From a virus (Duplodnaviria > Caudoviricetes), in the IMG/VR virus record IMGVR_UViG_3300043394_000476, positions 1 to 30,713 of that record: 30,713 bases of DNA. One strand, given 5' to 3'. Below are positions 2,330 through 21,342 of this stretch, piece after piece. The notes beneath the pieces were generated by a model. That model was not told where the DNA came from. It ran no database searches and saw nothing but the letters and a program-made list of their open reading frames with translations. Each line of letters opens with the position of its first letter. Position 1 is the stretch's first letter. The translations under genes were made by a program, and so were the position numbers.

Positions 2330-3292
2330 ATGGATCATATCACTAAAAAAGAAGTTATTGCTGCGTTGAATGAATATATGCAGACCCATAAAATGACACA
2401 AGCCGATGTTGCTAATAAAGCGGGTGTTAGAAAAGAATATTTATCAATGATTTTAAAGCCAGATAGCGATTTCATGTATGATGCCGGGGCTAATGGTAAA
2501 GGTTTTATTCCTGTAAAACACTTTAATGCTTTGGCAGAAATGTGTGGCTACAAAACTGAAAAGGAGTATTGGCAAACACAACCTACCGCTCAAACAAGTG
2601 CTATTCTTGCCAACTTAGAGGACGCTAAAAAACATCACTTAACAATTACGCTAATTGGTGAGACTGGATCTGGAAAATCCTATACGGCAAATTTGTTTGC
2701 CGCTAAAAACCCGCTAGATACATTCGTAATAACAGCTGGTTCTAGCGATACGCTGGGAGATTTGATTGACAAGATTATGGAAGAGTTAAAGATTCACGCA
2801 ACGGGTCGCTCTAAGTCAACTAAAATACGTCAAATAGCCACCTCAATGAGAATGCTAAAAAACTACGGACACACACCCATGTTAATTGTGGATGAATCAG
2901 AATATTTAAAACAGGCAGCGCTTTGTGCTATGAAGGAGTTATACGATAATCTTAAAGACTACTGTTCACTAGTTTTTATTGGTACGGACCAGCTTGTTGA
3001 TAATGTGGAGCGATTAAAGAGACGGAACAAATCAGGAATACCACAATTTCACAGACGCATCAAATTTGGTTTACGATTACTGCCTAATATCGACAGAAGC
3101 TACGCCTTATTTGTTAATGATATTGAAGATCGTCAGCTGAAACGATTCATCCTATCTAACTGTGGGAACTATGGGGAACTGCACGACATCATTGTTCCTG
3201 CCACTCGTGAAGCGGAACGTTTGGGAGAACCATTAAGTCTAGATATAGTTAGAAAAGTATTAAATCTACCAGAAGGCAATTTGATATGGTAA
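2330..3292 (+). CDS. MuB-like transposition AAA+ ATPase with N-terminal HTH
   Basis: HTH (MTQADVANKAGVRKEYLS), Walker A GETGSGKS, Walker B LIVDE; directly after transposase. Confidence 0.88.
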   Translation: MDHITKKEVIAALNEYMQTHKMTQADVANKAGVRKEYLSMILKPDSDFMYDAGANGKGFIPVKHFNALAEMCGYKTEKEYWQTQPTAQTSAILANLEDAKKHHLTITLIGETGSGKSYTANLFAAKNPLDTFVITAGSSDTLGDLIDKIMEELKIHATGRSKSTKIRQIATSMRMLKNYGHTPMLIVDESEYLKQAALCAMKELYDNLKDYCSLVFIGTDQLVDNVERLKRRNKSGIPQFHRRIKFGLRLLPNIDRSYALFVNDIEDRQLKRFILSNCGNYGELHDIIVPATREAERLGEPLSLDIVRKVLNLPEGNLIW

Positions 3293-9127: not shown

Positions 9128-9576
9128 ACGTTATCTACTCCAACAGTATACGTTATTTCATATTCTTGAATTCCATCATCGCGTTTTACACGTCTTAAAT
9201 TAGTTCGAGTCATTCCTCGGCAGTTTGAATCAGGCCTGTATCCTTGAAGACATTTATGTACATCTTCAATAATGTTCCAAATTCCCCATACATTATCCTT
9301 TTGTTGTTTTGGAGATATAAAACTCGTGTTAGAAATCCTAATGTTAGCTATTGTAATTGTGATTGTTCCAGTAGCCATTTGTCTATTTTGTGGTATGGCT
9401 TTACGGTCAGTACCAATTTGACTATAATCTAAATTACTAACATCAATCAAAGCCAATGGGAATTTTGTAGGCGGGTTTGGCGAATAGTCATCAAGCTGTC
9501 CCCAATCTTCATCAATATATTTCAAAGCTGGGATGGTCCCTATTGTTTTCTGAATATTTTCTAATACTATTTTCAT
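9124..9576 (-). CDS. tail terminator/completion protein (Mu gp37-like)
   Basis: YIDEDWGQLD...P..FPLALID pattern, size, synteny after gpG. Confidence 0.6.
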   Translation of the reverse strand: MKIVLENIQKTIGTIPALKYIDEDWGQLDDYSPNPPTKFPLALIDVSNLDYSQIGTDRKAIPQNRQMATGTITITIANIRISNTSFISPKQQKDNVWGIWNIIEDVHKCLQGYRPDSNCRGMTRTNLRRVKRDDGIQEYEITYTVGVDNV

Positions 9577-10115
9577 CGTTTTAAGCCTTTTAAAATTTCT
9601 TTTTCTACCTCTTTCATGTTTAAGTCAACAACCTTTTCAATACGCTGTCTTACCATTGGATGGTCGCCAATAAATTGTCGTTGTTTTATTTGCATTTTCG
9701 CCCCTACTTTTTGCAAGGCTAATGCTCTCCACATTGCCGCTTCAGCAGATAAGTTTTTGTTTCTTGCAGTATTTCTGGAATCGCCTTTTTTAGTTTTGCT
9801 AACTGCCCCATTTGATTTGTAAAACATGGCCCAAAAAAAGCGTTTCATACGTTCTGTTACAACTACCTCTCCGCCCTCATTTTGTAAGGTTGCATAAGGT
9901 AATGAACTCGACCAAGACAAACTGTTGGCTGTTTCTTTGGAACGAATAGAACGTCTTAGCTTTCCTGTTCGCATCATAAGGCTTCCCTTTCTATTGGGTA
10001 GCTTTGTACCGTCCCAAACTTTATCAAAGAATGCCTTTCGCTCAAAGTTTTTGTCAAACTCCTCAGTAAGATCCACTCGCAGATCACTAATGATATTTTT
10101 TAAAAATGCAATCAT
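9573..10115 (-). CDS. virion morphogenesis protein (Mu gpG / P2 S family)
   Basis: LMMRTGKLRRSI, PYATLQNEGG, IKQRQFIG motifs. Confidence 0.85.
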   Translation of the reverse strand: MIAFLKNIISDLRVDLTEEFDKNFERKAFFDKVWDGTKLPNRKGSLMMRTGKLRRSIRSKETANSLSWSSSLPYATLQNEGGEVVVTERMKRFFWAMFYKSNGAVSKTKKGDSRNTARNKNLSAEAAMWRALALQKVGAKMQIKQRQFIGDHPMVRQRIEKVVDLNMKEVEKEILKGLKR

Positions 10116-10171: not shown

Positions 10172-10450
10172 ATGAGAACAATTTTTGACTATAATCCAAC
10201 CAATCAGGAGCTCAACGATATTCGTTTTGACTCTCTTTCGTTGTGTCATAAATTTGGCATTGATACAGATCAACAGTTAACCCCAGAGCTATACATTAAA
10301 CTTGTATCACAAGAGAATGCTTATTATGATTTAGCCGTTTTGTTTGAATTTAGAAACGACCAACAAAAAGCAGATGAATTTTGGAAAATGCTTCCTGCAT
10401 CACTTAAAACTGAAGCATTGGGTTTTGACTCTCTTGAAATTGCTATTTAG
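10172..10450 (+). CDS. small acidic protein, candidate immunity protein for MuF C-terminal domain
   Basis: 92-aa ORF filling the gap, convergent with MuF (8-nt overlap), own promoter. Confidence 0.6.
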   Translation: MRTIFDYNPTNQELNDIRFDSLSLCHKFGIDTDQQLTPELYIKLVSQENAYYDLAVLFEFRNDQQKADEFWKMLPASLKTEALGFDSLEIAI

Positions 10451-11963
10451 AATTTGCTTTAATATACTCCATAGTTTTTATTCCTATTGTTCCGTAGTCA
10501 CTCAGTAAATTTGGCGCTAAATCTACTGCGGCCTTTTTTTCGTCTATTTTGTTATTTTTTAATACTTCTCTAAAGTCATTAATCCACTGTTTATAGCCAT
10601 AGCCGTTGTCTAAAATTTCTTTTTGATGAATTGCTTCTCCTCCTAACTTTTTAATAAAATCAGGATAGGTATGTCTAGCAACAAACTGGTTTAAGGTTTC
10701 CATATTTTTGATTCCAATTTGCGATAATCTCTGAGGCTTTGTCTTAGTCTTTGCGTGTAAAATTTCATGCCATAAGATTTCAAAAGAATATTCCTGATTA
10801 AAGGTCATTTTTTCTCCTTTTTTAATTGCTGCTAACCCTCCTTTAAACTCCTCTAACGGATTGAATTTAATACTTGAAAACTCGTGATTACTCAAAGTAA
10901 TTTTGGAGCCCCCAACCCAATCGTTTGTTCTTGGATTATAGGACATAGAATGTTGCATCATATAAGATTTAGACTTTAAAAACTTTACATCGTCCAAGCC
11001 GCTTCTAAAGTCTTCAGGGGACAATTCAGAATATTTAATTAGTATGTTTTTAATCTCTTTATTAGTTGGAAATTCTCCTTTAATGTAGTCATTCATATCT
11101 ATAAGCGATTTGTTCTTCAATTGATTTATCACAACTTTTGCACCTACCACTTTATTATAAGGATGTTCAGGCGGGAAAATTACTTTTTGCTTACCAGGAT
11201 TAAATCGGAATATCTCCAGTTGGTTCTTGCCACTCTTACCAATTTGGGTGGTGGCTTTTTCTCCCTCGGCAATTGCCTTTTTGCTATCGCTTAACGGGTA
11301 TTTATCTTTTAGAACTTCCACTACGTTGCATCGGCAGTTCCAGCCATTGGGCGGATAATACAAATCCCAAAAAGGGTCGCCTTTAGGTAAAGTGGTTCCA
11401 TTCAATCTAGCATGTGAATCTCTCACACGATTATCTCCTGCGGTTCTATACTGTAAGTTGTATCGGTCTTCATCGCTAAACTCAGCCCATTTGGCAGCCA
11501 TTTGAGCCGCATTAACCGCATATTCATATTCGGTATTCAAATAGGTTTGATTGTAGTTTTTGTTTACCTTATTAAAGTCGTTAGCAAAAGCACTGTATGG
11601 CTTTAGACTACCACTCTCGTCTAATAATAATCGTGAAGCTTCAAAAAGCTGTGCGTGTGTTTTTAAACCTGAGAACAGGTACACATCATTTTGCAACGCA
11701 GTGCGCATTACTTCGTGCATATCTCTACTGCTCACCGCAAAATTGAAAATATCTGCAGTTTGGCTGGCTAAATCTTTATAAGCCTTTTCGGTTTTCAAAT
11801 CTTTAGTCTTGTAAGCCCCTTTTTCGTGCAATCGTTTAAATGCATTTTCAGCGGTATTTAAAAGCGATTTAAATTGGTCGCTAAGGCTTAGATTTAATTG
11901 CTCAGACTTAGTTTGGCAGTCCTCACATCCACAATTGTATAAAGTAGTTATTCGGCTGTGCAA
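10443..11963 (-). CDS. MuF (SPP1 gp7-like) minor head protein with C-terminal HEXXH domain; probably made as portal fusion
   Basis: YRTAGDNRVRDSH, YYPPNGWNCRC, FPPEHPY, then ~237-aa extension with WHEILH; only a TTG start. Confidence 0.88.
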   Translation of the reverse strand: MHSRITTLYNCGCEDCQTKSEQLNLSLSDQFKSLLNTAENAFKRLHEKGAYKTKDLKTEKAYKDLASQTADIFNFAVSSRDMHEVMRTALQNDVYLFSGLKTHAQLFEASRLLLDESGSLKPYSAFANDFNKVNKNYNQTYLNTEYEYAVNAAQMAAKWAEFSDEDRYNLQYRTAGDNRVRDSHARLNGTTLPKGDPFWDLYYPPNGWNCRCNVVEVLKDKYPLSDSKKAIAEGEKATTQIGKSGKNQLEIFRFNPGKQKVIFPPEHPYNKVVGAKVVINQLKNKSLIDMNDYIKGEFPTNKEIKNILIKYSELSPEDFRSGLDDVKFLKSKSYMMQHSMSYNPRTNDWVGGSKITLSNHEFSSIKFNPLEEFKGGLAAIKKGEKMTFNQEYSFEILWHEILHAKTKTKPQRLSQIGIKNMETLNQFVARHTYPDFIKKLGGEAIHQKEILDNGYGYKQWINDFREVLKNNKIDEKKAAVDLAPNLLSDYGTIGIKTMEYIKANSK

Positions 11964-11964
11964 T

Positions 11965-11999
11965 GCCCCAAAATATTCGGGGCTTAAACGAAAAAATTT
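11965..11999 (-). promoter_or_regulatory. -1 ribosomal frameshift signal (portal to MuF)
   Basis: A_AAT_TTT / T_TTT_TTC heptamers, 6-nt spacer, hairpin GCCCCGAA-TAT-TTTGGGGC; -1 frame is the MuF frame. Confidence 0.75.
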
Positions 12000-13225
12000 T
12001 CGTAATCCTGCAGGCTTAACTTGGTACCAGGAGCGGGTGCTTTATTGCCGACTACTTCAATTCCAAAAGTAGCTTTTACCCAGTTAGCATCAACCTCTAA
12101 AAAGGCTGCGGCCTCGGTAGTCATTTTCCAAAGCTTATCTAAATCCTCTGCGGGCGGATAGGCATATACAACATCCTGACTAATGATTCCTAGAACTTTT
12201 AAAGCAGGAAGTACGGTGGTATTCCAAGCCTGTTCTATTAATGATAAATCACTATCTACTAAATCCTGTAAAATAGTGATAGAGGTTTTCTCTTTAGAGT
12301 TGGATCCGTTTTTAGTGTCCTGCCCCACAACCGTTCCCGAGATACCCATAGATAGCTCATTATTGCACAAGCCAATTAAATTTTTGTAAACGTCACCATT
12401 TGTACTTACACCCTGTGCAAATTCAAAACTCTCATTTTCATCAATGATAAACCAAGCGGCAGCACCGATATCTTTCAGCATCTTTTCGCCCCGAGATACC
12501 ATAGTTCGGTCTTGCGTATTGGTCTTTAAAACCCTGGGCGGAATGCCATAAATCTCGCAAAGCTCACTGTAACAAGACTGAGAGAAGCGTTTGAATAGCA
12601 CGTGTGGAACACACCCATTGAGTAGCCCAAAGTCTTTTCCGTTTCCAAACTCAATTAACCAAGAACCATATTCTTTTTGCTCACGATATGCTATCTTTTT
12701 GTCGTCGGCGTAATCGTAATAAATGTGTCCTCCGTTTGGATCAATATTCTGTCTTGGAATTAGATTGTACACCAACTCATTGTTAATATAATCAAATTCG
12801 CCTAAGGAATGTCCGTAAAAACGGGTTTCTAAAATAGCTTTATTGACCTGGTATATCCAACGCTTATTTTGGAATAAATCGGTTAACTCTTGGTTTAACT
12901 TCCCGCTTGCGTCTTTGAGAATAAAGGACTGAGACAAAGCCTTAAGCAATCGGTTGTTAATTTGCGATTGAAGGTGCAAATCCACCATAATATTATCATA
13001 GAGATTATACAGCGGATACCGCTTTGGCTGATCTATGTTATTGGCTAAGTTAAGCGCATCGTTCCAGTTTTTTATGTCCTGACGAGTACGCGAAATAGTT
13101 TTTGGCGCAATAGTAGCTGCATAATTAGTCCCGCTTTTTTTTATGGCTTTAGGGGCGGCAGCTAAACTAAAACTTGGCTTTGTGCCTCCCGGTATAAAAT
13201 CCCGTAGTGTATTAAAAAATCCCAT
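11984..13225 (-). CDS. portal protein (Mu gp29 / DUF935-like)
   Basis: CEIYGIPPR, CNNELSMGISG..., size and position. Confidence 0.85.
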   Translation of the reverse strand: MGFFNTLRDFIPGGTKPSFSLAAAPKAIKKSGTNYAATIAPKTISRTRQDIKNWNDALNLANNIDQPKRYPLYNLYDNIMVDLHLQSQINNRLLKALSQSFILKDASGKLNQELTDLFQNKRWIYQVNKAILETRFYGHSLGEFDYINNELVYNLIPRQNIDPNGGHIYYDYADDKKIAYREQKEYGSWLIEFGNGKDFGLLNGCVPHVLFKRFSQSCYSELCEIYGIPPRVLKTNTQDRTMVSRGEKMLKDIGAAAWFIIDENESFEFAQGVSTNGDVYKNLIGLCNNELSMGISGTVVGQDTKNGSNSKEKTSITILQDLVDSDLSLIEQAWNTTVLPALKVLGIISQDVVYAYPPAEDLDKLWKMTTEAAAFLEVDANWVKATFGIEVVGNKAPAPGTKLSLQDYENFFV

Positions 13226-13226
13226 A

Positions 13227-13685
13227 TTAATAATCGTGGTTAAATTTAGTTCTTGATCCTGCGCTAAAAGGTTGTCTTTCGCTATTGGCCTCGTCTAGTG
13301 TGATGCGTGGCAAAGAGGTTAATACCACGGTTCCTTTTGATAGCTTAGTAAACCAATCAATAGCTCTATCGTATCTTTCTTTTGCTTGCTCATAGATAAA
13401 ATCAGCGTTGCAAAGGGTGGCAATATGAAATTTAGCTAGTGTTAAGCAATGCTGCAGAATGAGCGCGTTACGATCTAAAGCAGATGCAGTAAAAATGGTT
13501 GCTACGTCATAAATAAGTCTGCCGTCTAGGGTTTCTAGTTTATTAGTATTTGCGGTTAAATAACTTTTAGCTTCCTCCTCCGCGGCGGCAAGAGCCTGCT
13601 CCACTATATCGTCATTGCCCTCGGTAATTTGGTCTATTTGGTAGGCATAAATAACACTACCTAAGTCTTCTTTTTTTAAAAACAT
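13227..13685 (-). CDS. head-tail adaptor (Mu gp36 / DUF1320-like)
   Basis: AEEEAKSYL...YD, RYDRAIDWF..LSKG. Confidence 0.85.
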   Translation of the reverse strand: MFLKKEDLGSVIYAYQIDQITEGNDDIVEQALAAAEEEAKSYLTANTNKLETLDGRLIYDVATIFTASALDRNALILQHCLTLAKFHIATLCNADFIYEQAKERYDRAIDWFTKLSKGTVVLTSLPRITLDEANSERQPFSAGSRTKFNHDY

Positions 13686-13845: not shown

Positions 13846-15366
13846 TTAGTATTTACGGTTGGAACGTTCACCAAATGTGAACGAACTATTTTTTTTAACT
13901 AGTCGGTTTTGAATCAGCCAGCAGGCTCCCTCAATAGCATCGGGCGCATCCATTATTTTAGTTGTTGGCGATACCGCGAGCATTTGGTCATGAGTTCGCA
14001 CCATATTTGGCTCTTCTTTTTGCGCCACATTAAAAATCAAACTGCCTAAACGGTTGTGTGGCTCCAGCGTACCCTCAATTCTAAAAAACTTATCGGGTTT
14101 TTTACGGCTGTCTGGTGTAATAGGAATAACAAATCCGTGGTCTTTGGCACGTTGATAAATAAGCGGCAATAAAACCTGCTCATAGAATGGATCCTGGAGC
14201 GAGTTGTTTTCAATGTAAATGCGCTTGGTATCTACCTTATTTTGCGTTAAATATTTATAGGCTTCATACAGGCAGTCCACAAACTTGGCATTGCTCATTG
14301 TATCTACCCACATTTTATAGATATAATACTTTTGTTGCCTATGGCCGACAATAGCTATTGCCTTTGTGGAGGAATTCCCTTTGTCTTTGTTTGAGGTCGA
14401 TGGATCGGCATAGACAACTACATCTTCACAATAGGATAGCGGAGGACATTTGCCATAAGTCAACTCCTTAAAAATATCTCCCTCACTCACAGGGTTATTG
14501 AAGTACTCTTTTTGCGCTGAGTTGAATGAAATTGTTTTTAATACCCTATCAATGGACTCCTCCGTATTTTTATTAGGCCAGGTGCTCTTACCATTTTTGT
14601 CACGAATGTTTACTATATCGTGATGGTCGGCTTTTTTGGCTAGTTCAGTAACACAGCAAAACTTGGCAATGATATTGCCACACACCACAATCAATAAATG
14701 GCCTGAAATAGAACGCGTAGGAATTAAAGCCTCTTCAATCCACTTAACTTTTTGTTTAATACGCTCGGGATTTCGGCACTCTTCATCGGTGTCAATATCG
14801 TCGATAAGAATGACATCGGGTCTAACTTCGTCTTTACGGGTACCACGTGGACTTTGCCCCGCTCCAAGTGCTCTAAAGCTAACGCCCTTGCGCGTGCTAA
14901 ACTCTCCAGACTCCCAATTACCAATACTCTCCTGTTCTCCATAATCATTGATTATTCTATTATTGGCCTCTAGTATGGACTTATATGGTAATAGTAAACG
15001 CTCTGCATTATCATAGGTGGAGGAAACCATTATAATATTTTTCTTTTTTCCAGTTAGAACTAAAAGCAATACCTCCATCATGGTTCTACCTGACTTGGAT
15101 AGCTCACGCGCCCAAGAGCGCACCTCAAAATATTCTAAACTAGATAATACTCTTTTGGTTGCCTTGGTATGAAAAGGTGCGGGTTCTGAAGTATAAAAGT
15201 TGGGGAAATAGTATTTAAACCACTCCTCGGGGTTAGCCTCAAGACGCTTCATTCTATTTGCCTTTGCAATGGCTGTTTCGTTTAGATCAACTGGCGTTGC
15301 CTTAAGGGTGTTGTCTCTAAACTCCTGCCATAATTGTAAATAGGCTTTATCAGTTCTTGAGCTCAT
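13846..15366 (-). CDS. terminase large subunit
   Basis: WARELSKS Walker-A variant, ILIDDID Walker B, YADPS and DAPDA nuclease motifs. Confidence 0.9.
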   Translation of the reverse strand: MSSRTDKAYLQLWQEFRDNTLKATPVDLNETAIAKANRMKRLEANPEEWFKYYFPNFYTSEPAPFHTKATKRVLSSLEYFEVRSWARELSKSGRTMMEVLLLVLTGKKKNIIMVSSTYDNAERLLLPYKSILEANNRIINDYGEQESIGNWESGEFSTRKGVSFRALGAGQSPRGTRKDEVRPDVILIDDIDTDEECRNPERIKQKVKWIEEALIPTRSISGHLLIVVCGNIIAKFCCVTELAKKADHHDIVNIRDKNGKSTWPNKNTEESIDRVLKTISFNSAQKEYFNNPVSEGDIFKELTYGKCPPLSYCEDVVVYADPSTSNKDKGNSSTKAIAIVGHRQQKYYIYKMWVDTMSNAKFVDCLYEAYKYLTQNKVDTKRIYIENNSLQDPFYEQVLLPLIYQRAKDHGFVIPITPDSRKKPDKFFRIEGTLEPHNRLGSLIFNVAQKEEPNMVRTHDQMLAVSPTTKIMDAPDAIEGACWLIQNRLVKKNSSFTFGERSNRKY

Positions 15367-21024: not shown

Positions 21025-21342
21025 ATGCAAAACAACCAAGAGAACACAAGCAGCAAAATAGCCACACCAGAACAAATTGCGGAGTGGAAAGCACAACACG
21101 GGGAATTCTTTCATATTACCATTGAAGACAAAATTTGTTACCTAAAAAAACCCGATCGTAAAACATTAAGTTTTGCATCACAAGTTGGGGCTGACCCAAT
21201 GAAGTTTAACGAAGTAATTCTAAAAAACTGTTGGTTGGGTGGTGACGAAGAAATAATTACTGATGATAGCCTTTTTCTAGCCGTATCTTCTAAACTTGAC
21301 CAAGTTGTCGAGTTTAAAAAAGCAGAGCTGGTAAAGTACTAG
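21025..21342 (+). CDS. tail assembly chaperone (G equivalent)
   Basis: Between tube and tape measure; CYLKKP.R, NCWLGGDEEI. Confidence 0.8.
   Translation: MQNNQENTSSKIATPEQIAEWKAQHGEFFHITIEDKICYLKKPDRKTLSFASQVGADPMKFNEVILKNCWLGGDEEIITDDSLFLAVSSKLDQVVEFKKAELVKY

Follow-up and report, generated by a model that had tools for sequence, protein, structure and literature searches.

The virus contig IMGVR_UViG_3300043394_000476, analysed here over its whole length of 30,713 nucleotides (nt) and referred to as the window, derives from a Mu-like phage (30.7 kb, 38% GC) in which the MuF domain (PF04233) is encoded directly after the portal (PF06074). We propose that a −1 ribosomal frameshift at the end of the portal gene gives a predicted portal-MuF-zincin fusion of 927 amino acids (aa), and place the probability of this reading at about 0.9. 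Some ribosomes are likely to slip back by one base, because the slippery T run and the hairpin behind it are kept in nearly all relatives examined. The frameshift had been put forward in an original prediction made from the letters of the window, and the comparison reported below supports it: conservation extends to the phase, the heptamer and a covarying stem, but not to a start codon for MuF.

A slippery heptamer and stem-loop at the end of the portal gene

The portal open reading frame (ORF) runs on the minus strand from 13225 to 11984, encodes a 0-frame product of 413 aa (46.5 kDa; PF06074 E 3e-65, phrog_113 portal) and closes with GAA AAT TTT TTC GTT TAA. Two overlapping heptamers stand here in the portal reading phase, A_AAT_TTT at 11993–11999 and T_TTT_TTC at 11990–11996, the latter being the predicted −1 shift site. 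A spacer of 6 nt, formed by the final codon of the portal and the stop TAA (11984–11989), leads from T_TTT_TTC to an 8-bp GC-rich stem-loop at 11965–11983 (−11.0 kcal/mol), the predicted frameshift stimulator, which shows compensatory pairs in relatives; all these coordinates hold as first predicted. The −1 frame is open from 12041 to 10443 (stop at 12044), reads FFRLSPEYFGALH and contains the MuF ORF, as claimed. A slip at either heptamer would give the junction ...ENFF-RLSPEYF... and an extension of 515 aa (10443–11990, minus strand) comprising a linker with a Cys motif, the MuF domain and the zincin domain. The computed fusion of 927 aa and 105.4 kDa, against 46.5 kDa for the portal, agrees with the ~927 aa and the ~105 and ~46 kDa that had been foreseen.

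Both heptamers had been named as the slip site, and both do give the same product, but T_TTT_TTC is conserved while A_AAT_TTT is incidental in the window. As the main site here A_AAT_TTT was rejected on conservation, its upstream codon being altered in close relatives; in a separate subgroup of relatives it is the sole site.

The hairpin had been described as conspicuous. Taken alone it stands out only modestly (z = −1.84; equally stable folds came from 7 of 200 shuffles), but among the 85 in-phase heptamers in the window ORFs the junction pair has the strongest downstream fold and the only −1 frame of more than 200 codons, so that in its context the hairpin is not due to chance. A GC-rich hairpin immediately past a stop codon could also be a terminator or a processing site, or the motif an assembly artefact with MuF a broken gene, and single-base insertions that fuse the two frames do exist (L120, with P0001 and P0002 similar). 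We regard the probability of these explanations as close to negligible. The T run lies 5′ of the stem on the coding strand, a terminator scan found no terminator pattern and MuF stays open for 515 codons. Nor is the break at the junction an error, since it is the same in 384 of 444 loci and in contigs from two other freshwater studies, which cross the junction with no indel. A search of Rfam matched nothing within 11700–12300. A sigma-70-like site at 11962–11934 was discarded as being at chance level (15 found, 11.5 expected).

The linker carries a Cys motif, C-G-C-E-D-C (11933–11916, minus strand), about 20 codons past the shift site. Cys-rich counterparts occur in many −1 and fused relatives, and the motif is a possible metal site.

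Conservation of phase and signal among relatives

Relatives of the portal were gathered by conserved peptide patterns, which are blind to the junction, together with 17 phage records, and the loci were ranked by similarity; five of the six pattern fetches gave the best 80 of 176–456 confirmed relatives. Among the resulting 444 loci (duplicates and the window included) MuF lies in the −1 frame in 384, is fused in frame in 32, and lies in +1 in nine and in zero in one; a further 16 have no MuF in the stored DNA and two have a partial portal. The 213 representatives at 90% portal identity comprise 189 in −1, 15 fused, eight in +1 and one in zero, and the 68 representatives at 60% comprise 52, eight, seven and one, respectively, with portal identities to the window down to 24%. 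Thus, with 189 of 213 representatives in −1, the phase is not random, a possibility that the original prediction had raised against itself. The nine +1 or zero cases include four phages with a MuF ATG of their own (lotta8-2, FPSV-S1, D108 and Villandry), two loci that really have a −1 junction with an indel further on (L200, scored +1, and L310, scored 0), two with a special wiring described below (L364 and L375) and one that is unclassified (L251).

A further 400 genomes were drawn separately from the phylum, and ten new ones matched. All four strong portal and MuF matches are in −1. Three of them have T_TTT_TTC or A_AAT_TTT and a hairpin, the fourth has G_GGA_AAG with a weak fold, and the six partial or cut matches were left out of the count. 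This draw yielded no new fused loci.

An in-phase heptamer lies in the open overlap in 185 of the 189 −1 relatives, compared to 77 of 1005 control ends, i.e. other ORF ends from the same loci. When a fold of −8 kcal/mol or below is also required downstream, the counts become 179/189 and 6/1005. The pattern persists at 60% dereplication, where 51 of 52 loci have a heptamer within the overlap. The heptamer with the best hairpin is T_TTT_TTC/T in 161 of 185 relatives, and heptamers of the form H_HH.U_UU.Y shift efficiently in E. coli (PMC4066793). The terminal Phe-Phe codons are written T|TTT in 171 of 172 loci, compared to a background of 15% for internal Phe codons (402/2699), and the portal stop follows the heptamer after 3 nt in 154 of 183 loci.

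The stem is conserved as RNA. In 171 of 195 anchored loci a six-pair stem stands at a spacer of 6 nt, inside the 5–9 nt range for 3′ stimulators, compared to only 8–15 loci at spacers of 0–3 nt; arms matched with the downstream DNA of another locus pair in 5.9% of 22,590 cases. Where the 5′ arm departs from GCCCC, the 3′ arm carries the matching change in 35 of 41 loci. These covariation counts were made with an anchored script, a MAFFT alignment of 36 junctions having misregistered the 3′ arms because loop lengths vary. The comparison of junctions across relatives that had been suggested at the outset thus returns both a conserved T_TTT_TTC/T and a covarying hairpin. In 49 of 183 loci the opening of the −1 frame lies no more than one codon upstream of the heptamer, and among 40 close loci a −1 stop occurs within 25 codons before the site in 37 and within 25 codons after it in none.

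An identical product would arise if RNA polymerase slipped on the T run and added one U, the fusion then being made by ordinary translation. Slippage on shorter runs, depending on context, has been described (PMC5009743), and runs of 8–9 nt are present in 6 of 183 loci. In 167 of the 183, however, the run has 6–7 nt, below the 9 cited for efficient slippage (PMC5009743), and in ten, the A_AAT_TTT group, it has 4 nt. The run is moreover kept in codon phase, with a stem 3′ of it at ribosome distance, and we consider polymerase slippage very improbable.

Lack of a conserved MuF start

Gene callers start MuF at TTG 11961–11963 (minus strand), which is likely an internal Leu codon. The first ATG lies at 11720, 81 codons past TTG 11963, in line with the original count of about 80 codons with no Met; TTG 11831, TTG 11798 and GTG 11735 lie in between. 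The leader of TTG 11963 is folded at −12.5 kcal/mol, compared to 0 to −2.5 kcal/mol at the ATG of 11 other genes in the window. In 33 close loci the codon at this position is TTG in 12, TTA in 12, TTT in five, CTA in two, and ATG and TTC in one each. An ATG within 45 nt occurs in 13 of 185 loci, the median distance to the first ATG being 90 codons.

MuF could still be a separate protein with a translationally coupled start at the TTG or later, the hairpin tuning initiation and the two Phe residues serving as a protein motif. Mu and D108 and most outgroup phages do start MuF independently: 11 of the 12 Mu-like outgroup phages with a determinable MuF start (a 13th record was not scorable) have an ATG or GTG between positions −35 and +7 relative to the portal stop, and none of these 11 has a heptamer with a hairpin. 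For the window and its relatives such a start is very unlikely. Called MuF starts lie anywhere from 92 to 216 residues ahead of the same motif in 55 homologs, and the window's TTG position holds TTA, TTT, CTA or TTC in 20 of 33 loci, so that a conserved independent start, which would have spoken for a separate MuF, was not found (TTG in 12 of 33). A protein motif would fix neither the synonymous T|TTT (171/172) nor the 6-nt spacer, and the signal is kept inside fused ORFs, where initiation is unneeded.

The exception in the outgroup is Rhizobium phage RR1-B (L467, NC_021557), where A_AAA_AAA/A_AAA_AAC stands in phase before the portal stop near 3003–3018, with a downstream structure, MuF in −1 and an annotated TTG 83 nt further on. 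By its sequence RR1-B is a candidate for portal-MuF recoding outside Bacteroidota.

Fused genes and a reversed wiring

We found 60 in-frame portal-MuF proteins of 806–934 aa, most of which show FF-x-x-AP...GA at the junction, which is how the heptamer and a GCCCC...GGGGC stem translate in frame 0. Of 15 fused junctions (95% set, with L120 excluded as a one-T insertion), 13 retain the stem, the 6-nt spacer and T_TTT_TTY, and in these 13 loci the −1 frame closes 17–41 codons downstream. In such genes a −1 shift would probably release the short portal, the same signal acting in reverse.

The −1 tail of the fused loci contains P-H in 13 of 13 (L192, L199, L202, L213, L219, L225, L231, L234, L277, L280, L290, L291 and L359), though the 0-frame residues differ. 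It reads S-P-H in ten of the 13, often W-x-S-P-H; the probability of P-H under synonymous recoding is 0.003–0.30 per sequence, and S-P-H is missing from the matching frame of 183 loci of the −1 type. The conserved P-H suggests that the −1 tail is translated; shared ancestry or an RNA motif could also explain it.

In a tree of 148 portal sequences (FastTree; no formal monophyly test) fused and −1 forms interleave, pointing to repeated switches or module exchange. A third arrangement occurs in two loci with portals that are 69% identical (L364:1881-1963 and L375:2762-2823). Here the default portal frame reads a similar short tail; C_CTT_TTT_TC and a stem precede MuF, which is in the +1 frame, making a +1 or −2 shift a candidate. 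In a Flavobacterium covae prophage (L120:4125-4135) an extra T joins the frames into one ORF, the protein of which is identical to the predicted −1 product; this T is either a sequencing error or a natural insertion, and proteins P0001 and P0002 resemble this case.

A model of the natural fusion P0007 is poor (predicted local distance difference test, pLDDT, 65; predicted template modelling score, pTM, 0.36) and has a low-confidence linker at the junction. In-frame portal-MuF fusions are already in print, including portal-MuF-PBECR (PMC5512222).

The zincin-like tail and its predicted convergent partner gene

The MuF core domain (11322–11567, minus strand; PF04233 E 5e-17, residues 133–214 of the TTG ORF) is followed by a C-terminal zinc-metallopeptidase-like domain (10446–11108, minus strand) with HEILH at 10769–10755 and a candidate third ligand, Glu, at 10700–10698. 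The two His and the Glu of HEXXH and the downstream Glu are invariant in 40 of 40 aligned homologs. The model of the domain is confident (pLDDT 94.8), and the top rows of VIA-align are gluzincin-type peptidases with Z 6–8, namely dipeptidyl peptidase III (DPP III), M1 aminopeptidases and thermolysin. Pfam matched no family, and the best hit in the Atlas (0.89) is unnamed and gives no family. The domain is thus predicted to place HEXXH and a downstream Glu on a gluzincin-like zincin fold. The MuF tails of the relatives fall into 16 sequence clusters, PF18810 is present in fused forms, and another group is nearly tailless.

A 92-aa gene on the plus strand (10172–10450) converges on MuF, overlapping its stop by 8 nt, and is predicted to encode an inhibitor (immunity) partner. 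Of 35 loci with this zincin tail 18 carry a member of its family, compared to none of 144 others. A complex model of the zincin domain with the 92-aa protein reaches an interface score (ipSAE) of 0.88, the best control giving 0.00; 116 of 157 solved complexes pass the mark applied, as do 2 of 215 mismatched pairs. At least 90% of contacts are shared between runs, the partner has a pLDDT of at least 84, and the modelled contacts of the 92-aa protein include the second His of HEXXH. Neither Foldseek nor the Atlas gave a family for this small ORF. The modelling supports an effector-inhibitor pair, and a zinc peptidase effector restrained by the convergent 92-aa protein is a probable identity for the tail. 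The toxin-like domain of the original prediction has accordingly gained a zincin fold, a swappable tail and a predicted binding partner, all of them indirect support.

Most of the other 17 loci with the same tail (e.g. L015, L021, L068, L085 and L104) carry another small convergent ORF of 72–117 aa with a T-I/V-F/Y-D motif. Searches with hidden Markov models did not link the small ORFs beside these 17 loci to the 92-aa family of the window, and they are possibly a second inhibitor family. The same zincin domain is also found in proteins of 574–612 aa with no PF04233 match (P0112, P0115, P0121, P0130 and similar), one of which is named 'Phage Mu protein F like'; these carriers possibly represent another MuF family.

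Genome context and a tail chaperone candidate

The minus strand encodes, in order, the terminase large subunit (13846–15366; phrog_38 E 3e-63), a Mu gp36-like head-tail adaptor (13227–13685; PF07030, phrog_195), the portal, the MuF ORF (to 10443) and a neck or tail-completion gene (9573–10115; phrog_26). A profile search found rve (weak, E 2e-4), expected of a DDE transposase, AAA_22/TniB, expected of a MuB-like ATPase, and gp36 and Portal_Mu domains of the Mu-type head-neck genes in the window, and the closest named phage portals are those of Winoviridae (25–31% identity). Gene content and portal similarity put the window phage with the transposable Mu-like phages of Bacteroidota, as one of the Winoviridae or their kin.

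A tail assembly chaperone candidate on the plus strand (21025–21342) ends with G_GTA_AAG (21330–21336) and has a −1 frame that stays open as far as 21506 and overlaps the ATG of the tape measure. This is likely the usual G/GT frameshift, in which case the window phage would carry two −1 sites. The site at the portal junction falls outside the G/GT chaperone family: it lies in the portal gene, and the chaperone candidate lies elsewhere.

Discussion

The following mechanism would account for the junction. The hairpin would pause the ribosome with two tRNA-Phe on UUU UUC, both tRNAs would re-pair one base back, and translation would run on through RLSPEYF into MuF. One mRNA would then give the 413-aa portal and, as a fraction, the 927-aa portal-MuF-zinc-peptidase. 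Portals are dodecamers with their C-termini directed toward the capsid interior. Fusion subunits may co-assemble into this ring, a covalent tether replacing the non-covalent portal-MuF binding of the SPP1 gp6/gp7 type, and the efficiency of the shift would then set the number of MuF-effector copies per head. We consider such co-assembly and dosing, which the original prediction had put forward for a minority of portal subunits, probable. In SPP1 the portal brings a few copies of gp7 into the procapsid (PMC6316719, PMC5576092), and in capsid preparations of hankyphage MuF is represented by 3 peptides and the portal by 20 (PMC12135933 S6 Table).

Several observations weigh against the frameshift reading. 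The loci are kin, so that their counts are not independent events, and the sampling was ranked by similarity. A start-type codon (ATG, GTG or TTG) lies within 45 nt in 58 of 185 loci, at scattered positions, and in hankyphage, the junction of which carries the heptamer-hairpin signal, a MuF ATG overlaps the portal stop (at −4). Four loci in −1 phase with a GC-rich stem after the stop have only N_CTT_TTT (L043, L252, L266 and L403), which suggests single-tRNA slippage. Three others in −1 phase have weak predicted folds, and A-rich sites replace the T-rich one (A_AAA_AAA, A_AAA_AAT and G_GGA_AAG in fF4, Peternella and G346; L190, L194 and L447). The fused loci L198 and L441 show no signal, and a 5′ stimulator resembling a Shine-Dalgarno (SD) sequence is not conserved (37 of 195 loci). 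The junction falls outside the coverage of RNA contigs from two RNA runs. Hankyphage MuF was recovered in the 85–250 kDa slice, as were Gam and the adaptor (PMC12135933); because small proteins share this slice, these gel fractions do not resolve size. For the tail domain, the best VIA-align row (DPP III, Z 8.1, root-mean-square deviation 4.4, 179 residues aligned) scores close to what unassigned models commonly reach, and a Foldseek search found nothing at E ≤ 0.001.

The relatives would hold one junction cassette in three wirings: a short default with a −1 fusion, a fusion default with a −1 short form, and a short default with MuF in +1/−2. All three would give both forms, so that selection would appear to keep a fixed ratio of plain to MuF-effector portal. 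We lean slightly towards the broader view that Bacteroidota Mu-like phages make mixed portal rings by recoding and that the frameshift doses a virion-borne polymorphic toxin.

No description of a portal-MuF frameshift was found among the full-text matches listed, most subscription papers lying beyond the scope of the search. A term search for 'frameshift' had no hit in PMC5576092, PMC11699363, PMC5512222, PMC12135933 and PMC8776804; the passages in PMC10367356, PMC11375127, PMC7911831, PMC13313380 and PMC6316719 concern other genes, and the search of PMC3482391 covered MuF and portal only. From the sequences compared, a strongly conserved recoding signal is present at a junction for which no such signal appears to have been reported. 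If the reading is correct, the portal joins the short list of recoded phage genes, in a group with cultured members (hankyphage p00, TCUEAP3 and Porphyromonas prophages), and there would be a testable answer to how MuF proteins and toxins enter heads at low copy number. MuF starts would be mis-annotated throughout the group, and fused 'portal-MuF' genes would not be simple fusions. The reversed wiring would offer natural U_UUU_UUC/U cassettes that must shift very efficiently if the short portal stays the main form.

One close parallel is the −1 frameshift of the tail chaperone gpG/gpGT of lambda, where a heptamer likewise stands near the end of a morphogenesis gene and the shifted product, a minority, gains a second domain, as predicted here (PMC5009743, PMC6316719); the putative site of SPP1 17.5/17.5*, UUUUUUC, is the same heptamer as that of the window (PMC6316719). 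In contrast to gpG/gpGT, the host gene here is the portal, a virion subunit, the extension consists of MuF and a variable enzyme domain, and a covarying 3′ stem is conserved. In Listeria phage PSA, SPP1 gp17.1* and MSTV1 MCP-Ig a fraction of structural subunits is C-terminally extended, as would be the case for the portal (PMC5009743, PMC6316719, PMC11375127). Those extensions are immunoglobulin (Ig)-like or other domains on high-copy subunits, whereas here a 515-aa module would be added to the portal and is accompanied by a predicted inhibitor gene.

The dnaX locus also produces a long and a short oligomer subunit, tau and gamma, and exists in both frameshift polarities, so that either form can be the shifted one, as in the reversed wiring proposed here (PMC5009743). 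Here, by contrast, the gene is a phage head gene with a U-rich site and no conserved SD-like stimulator, and both polarities interleave within one phage group. MuF polymorphic toxins share the position of MuF right after the portal, the swappable C-terminal domain and the small adjacent gene (PMC5576092, PMC3482391, Bxa PMC11699363), and a metallopeptidase is present on 20% of them (PMC5576092, PMC3482391, PMC11699363). In the window the partner gene differs in being convergent on the opposite strand, and the excerpts of the MuF toxin and portal-MuF-PBECR papers treat MuF as a separate gene or a plain fusion (PMC5576092, PMC11699363, PMC5512222). Finally, in SPP1 gp6/gp7 a protein of the MuF family enters the head via the portal in one to two copies (PMC6316719, PMC5576092); there the link is non-covalent, whereas in the window phage it is predicted to be covalent, made through recoding.

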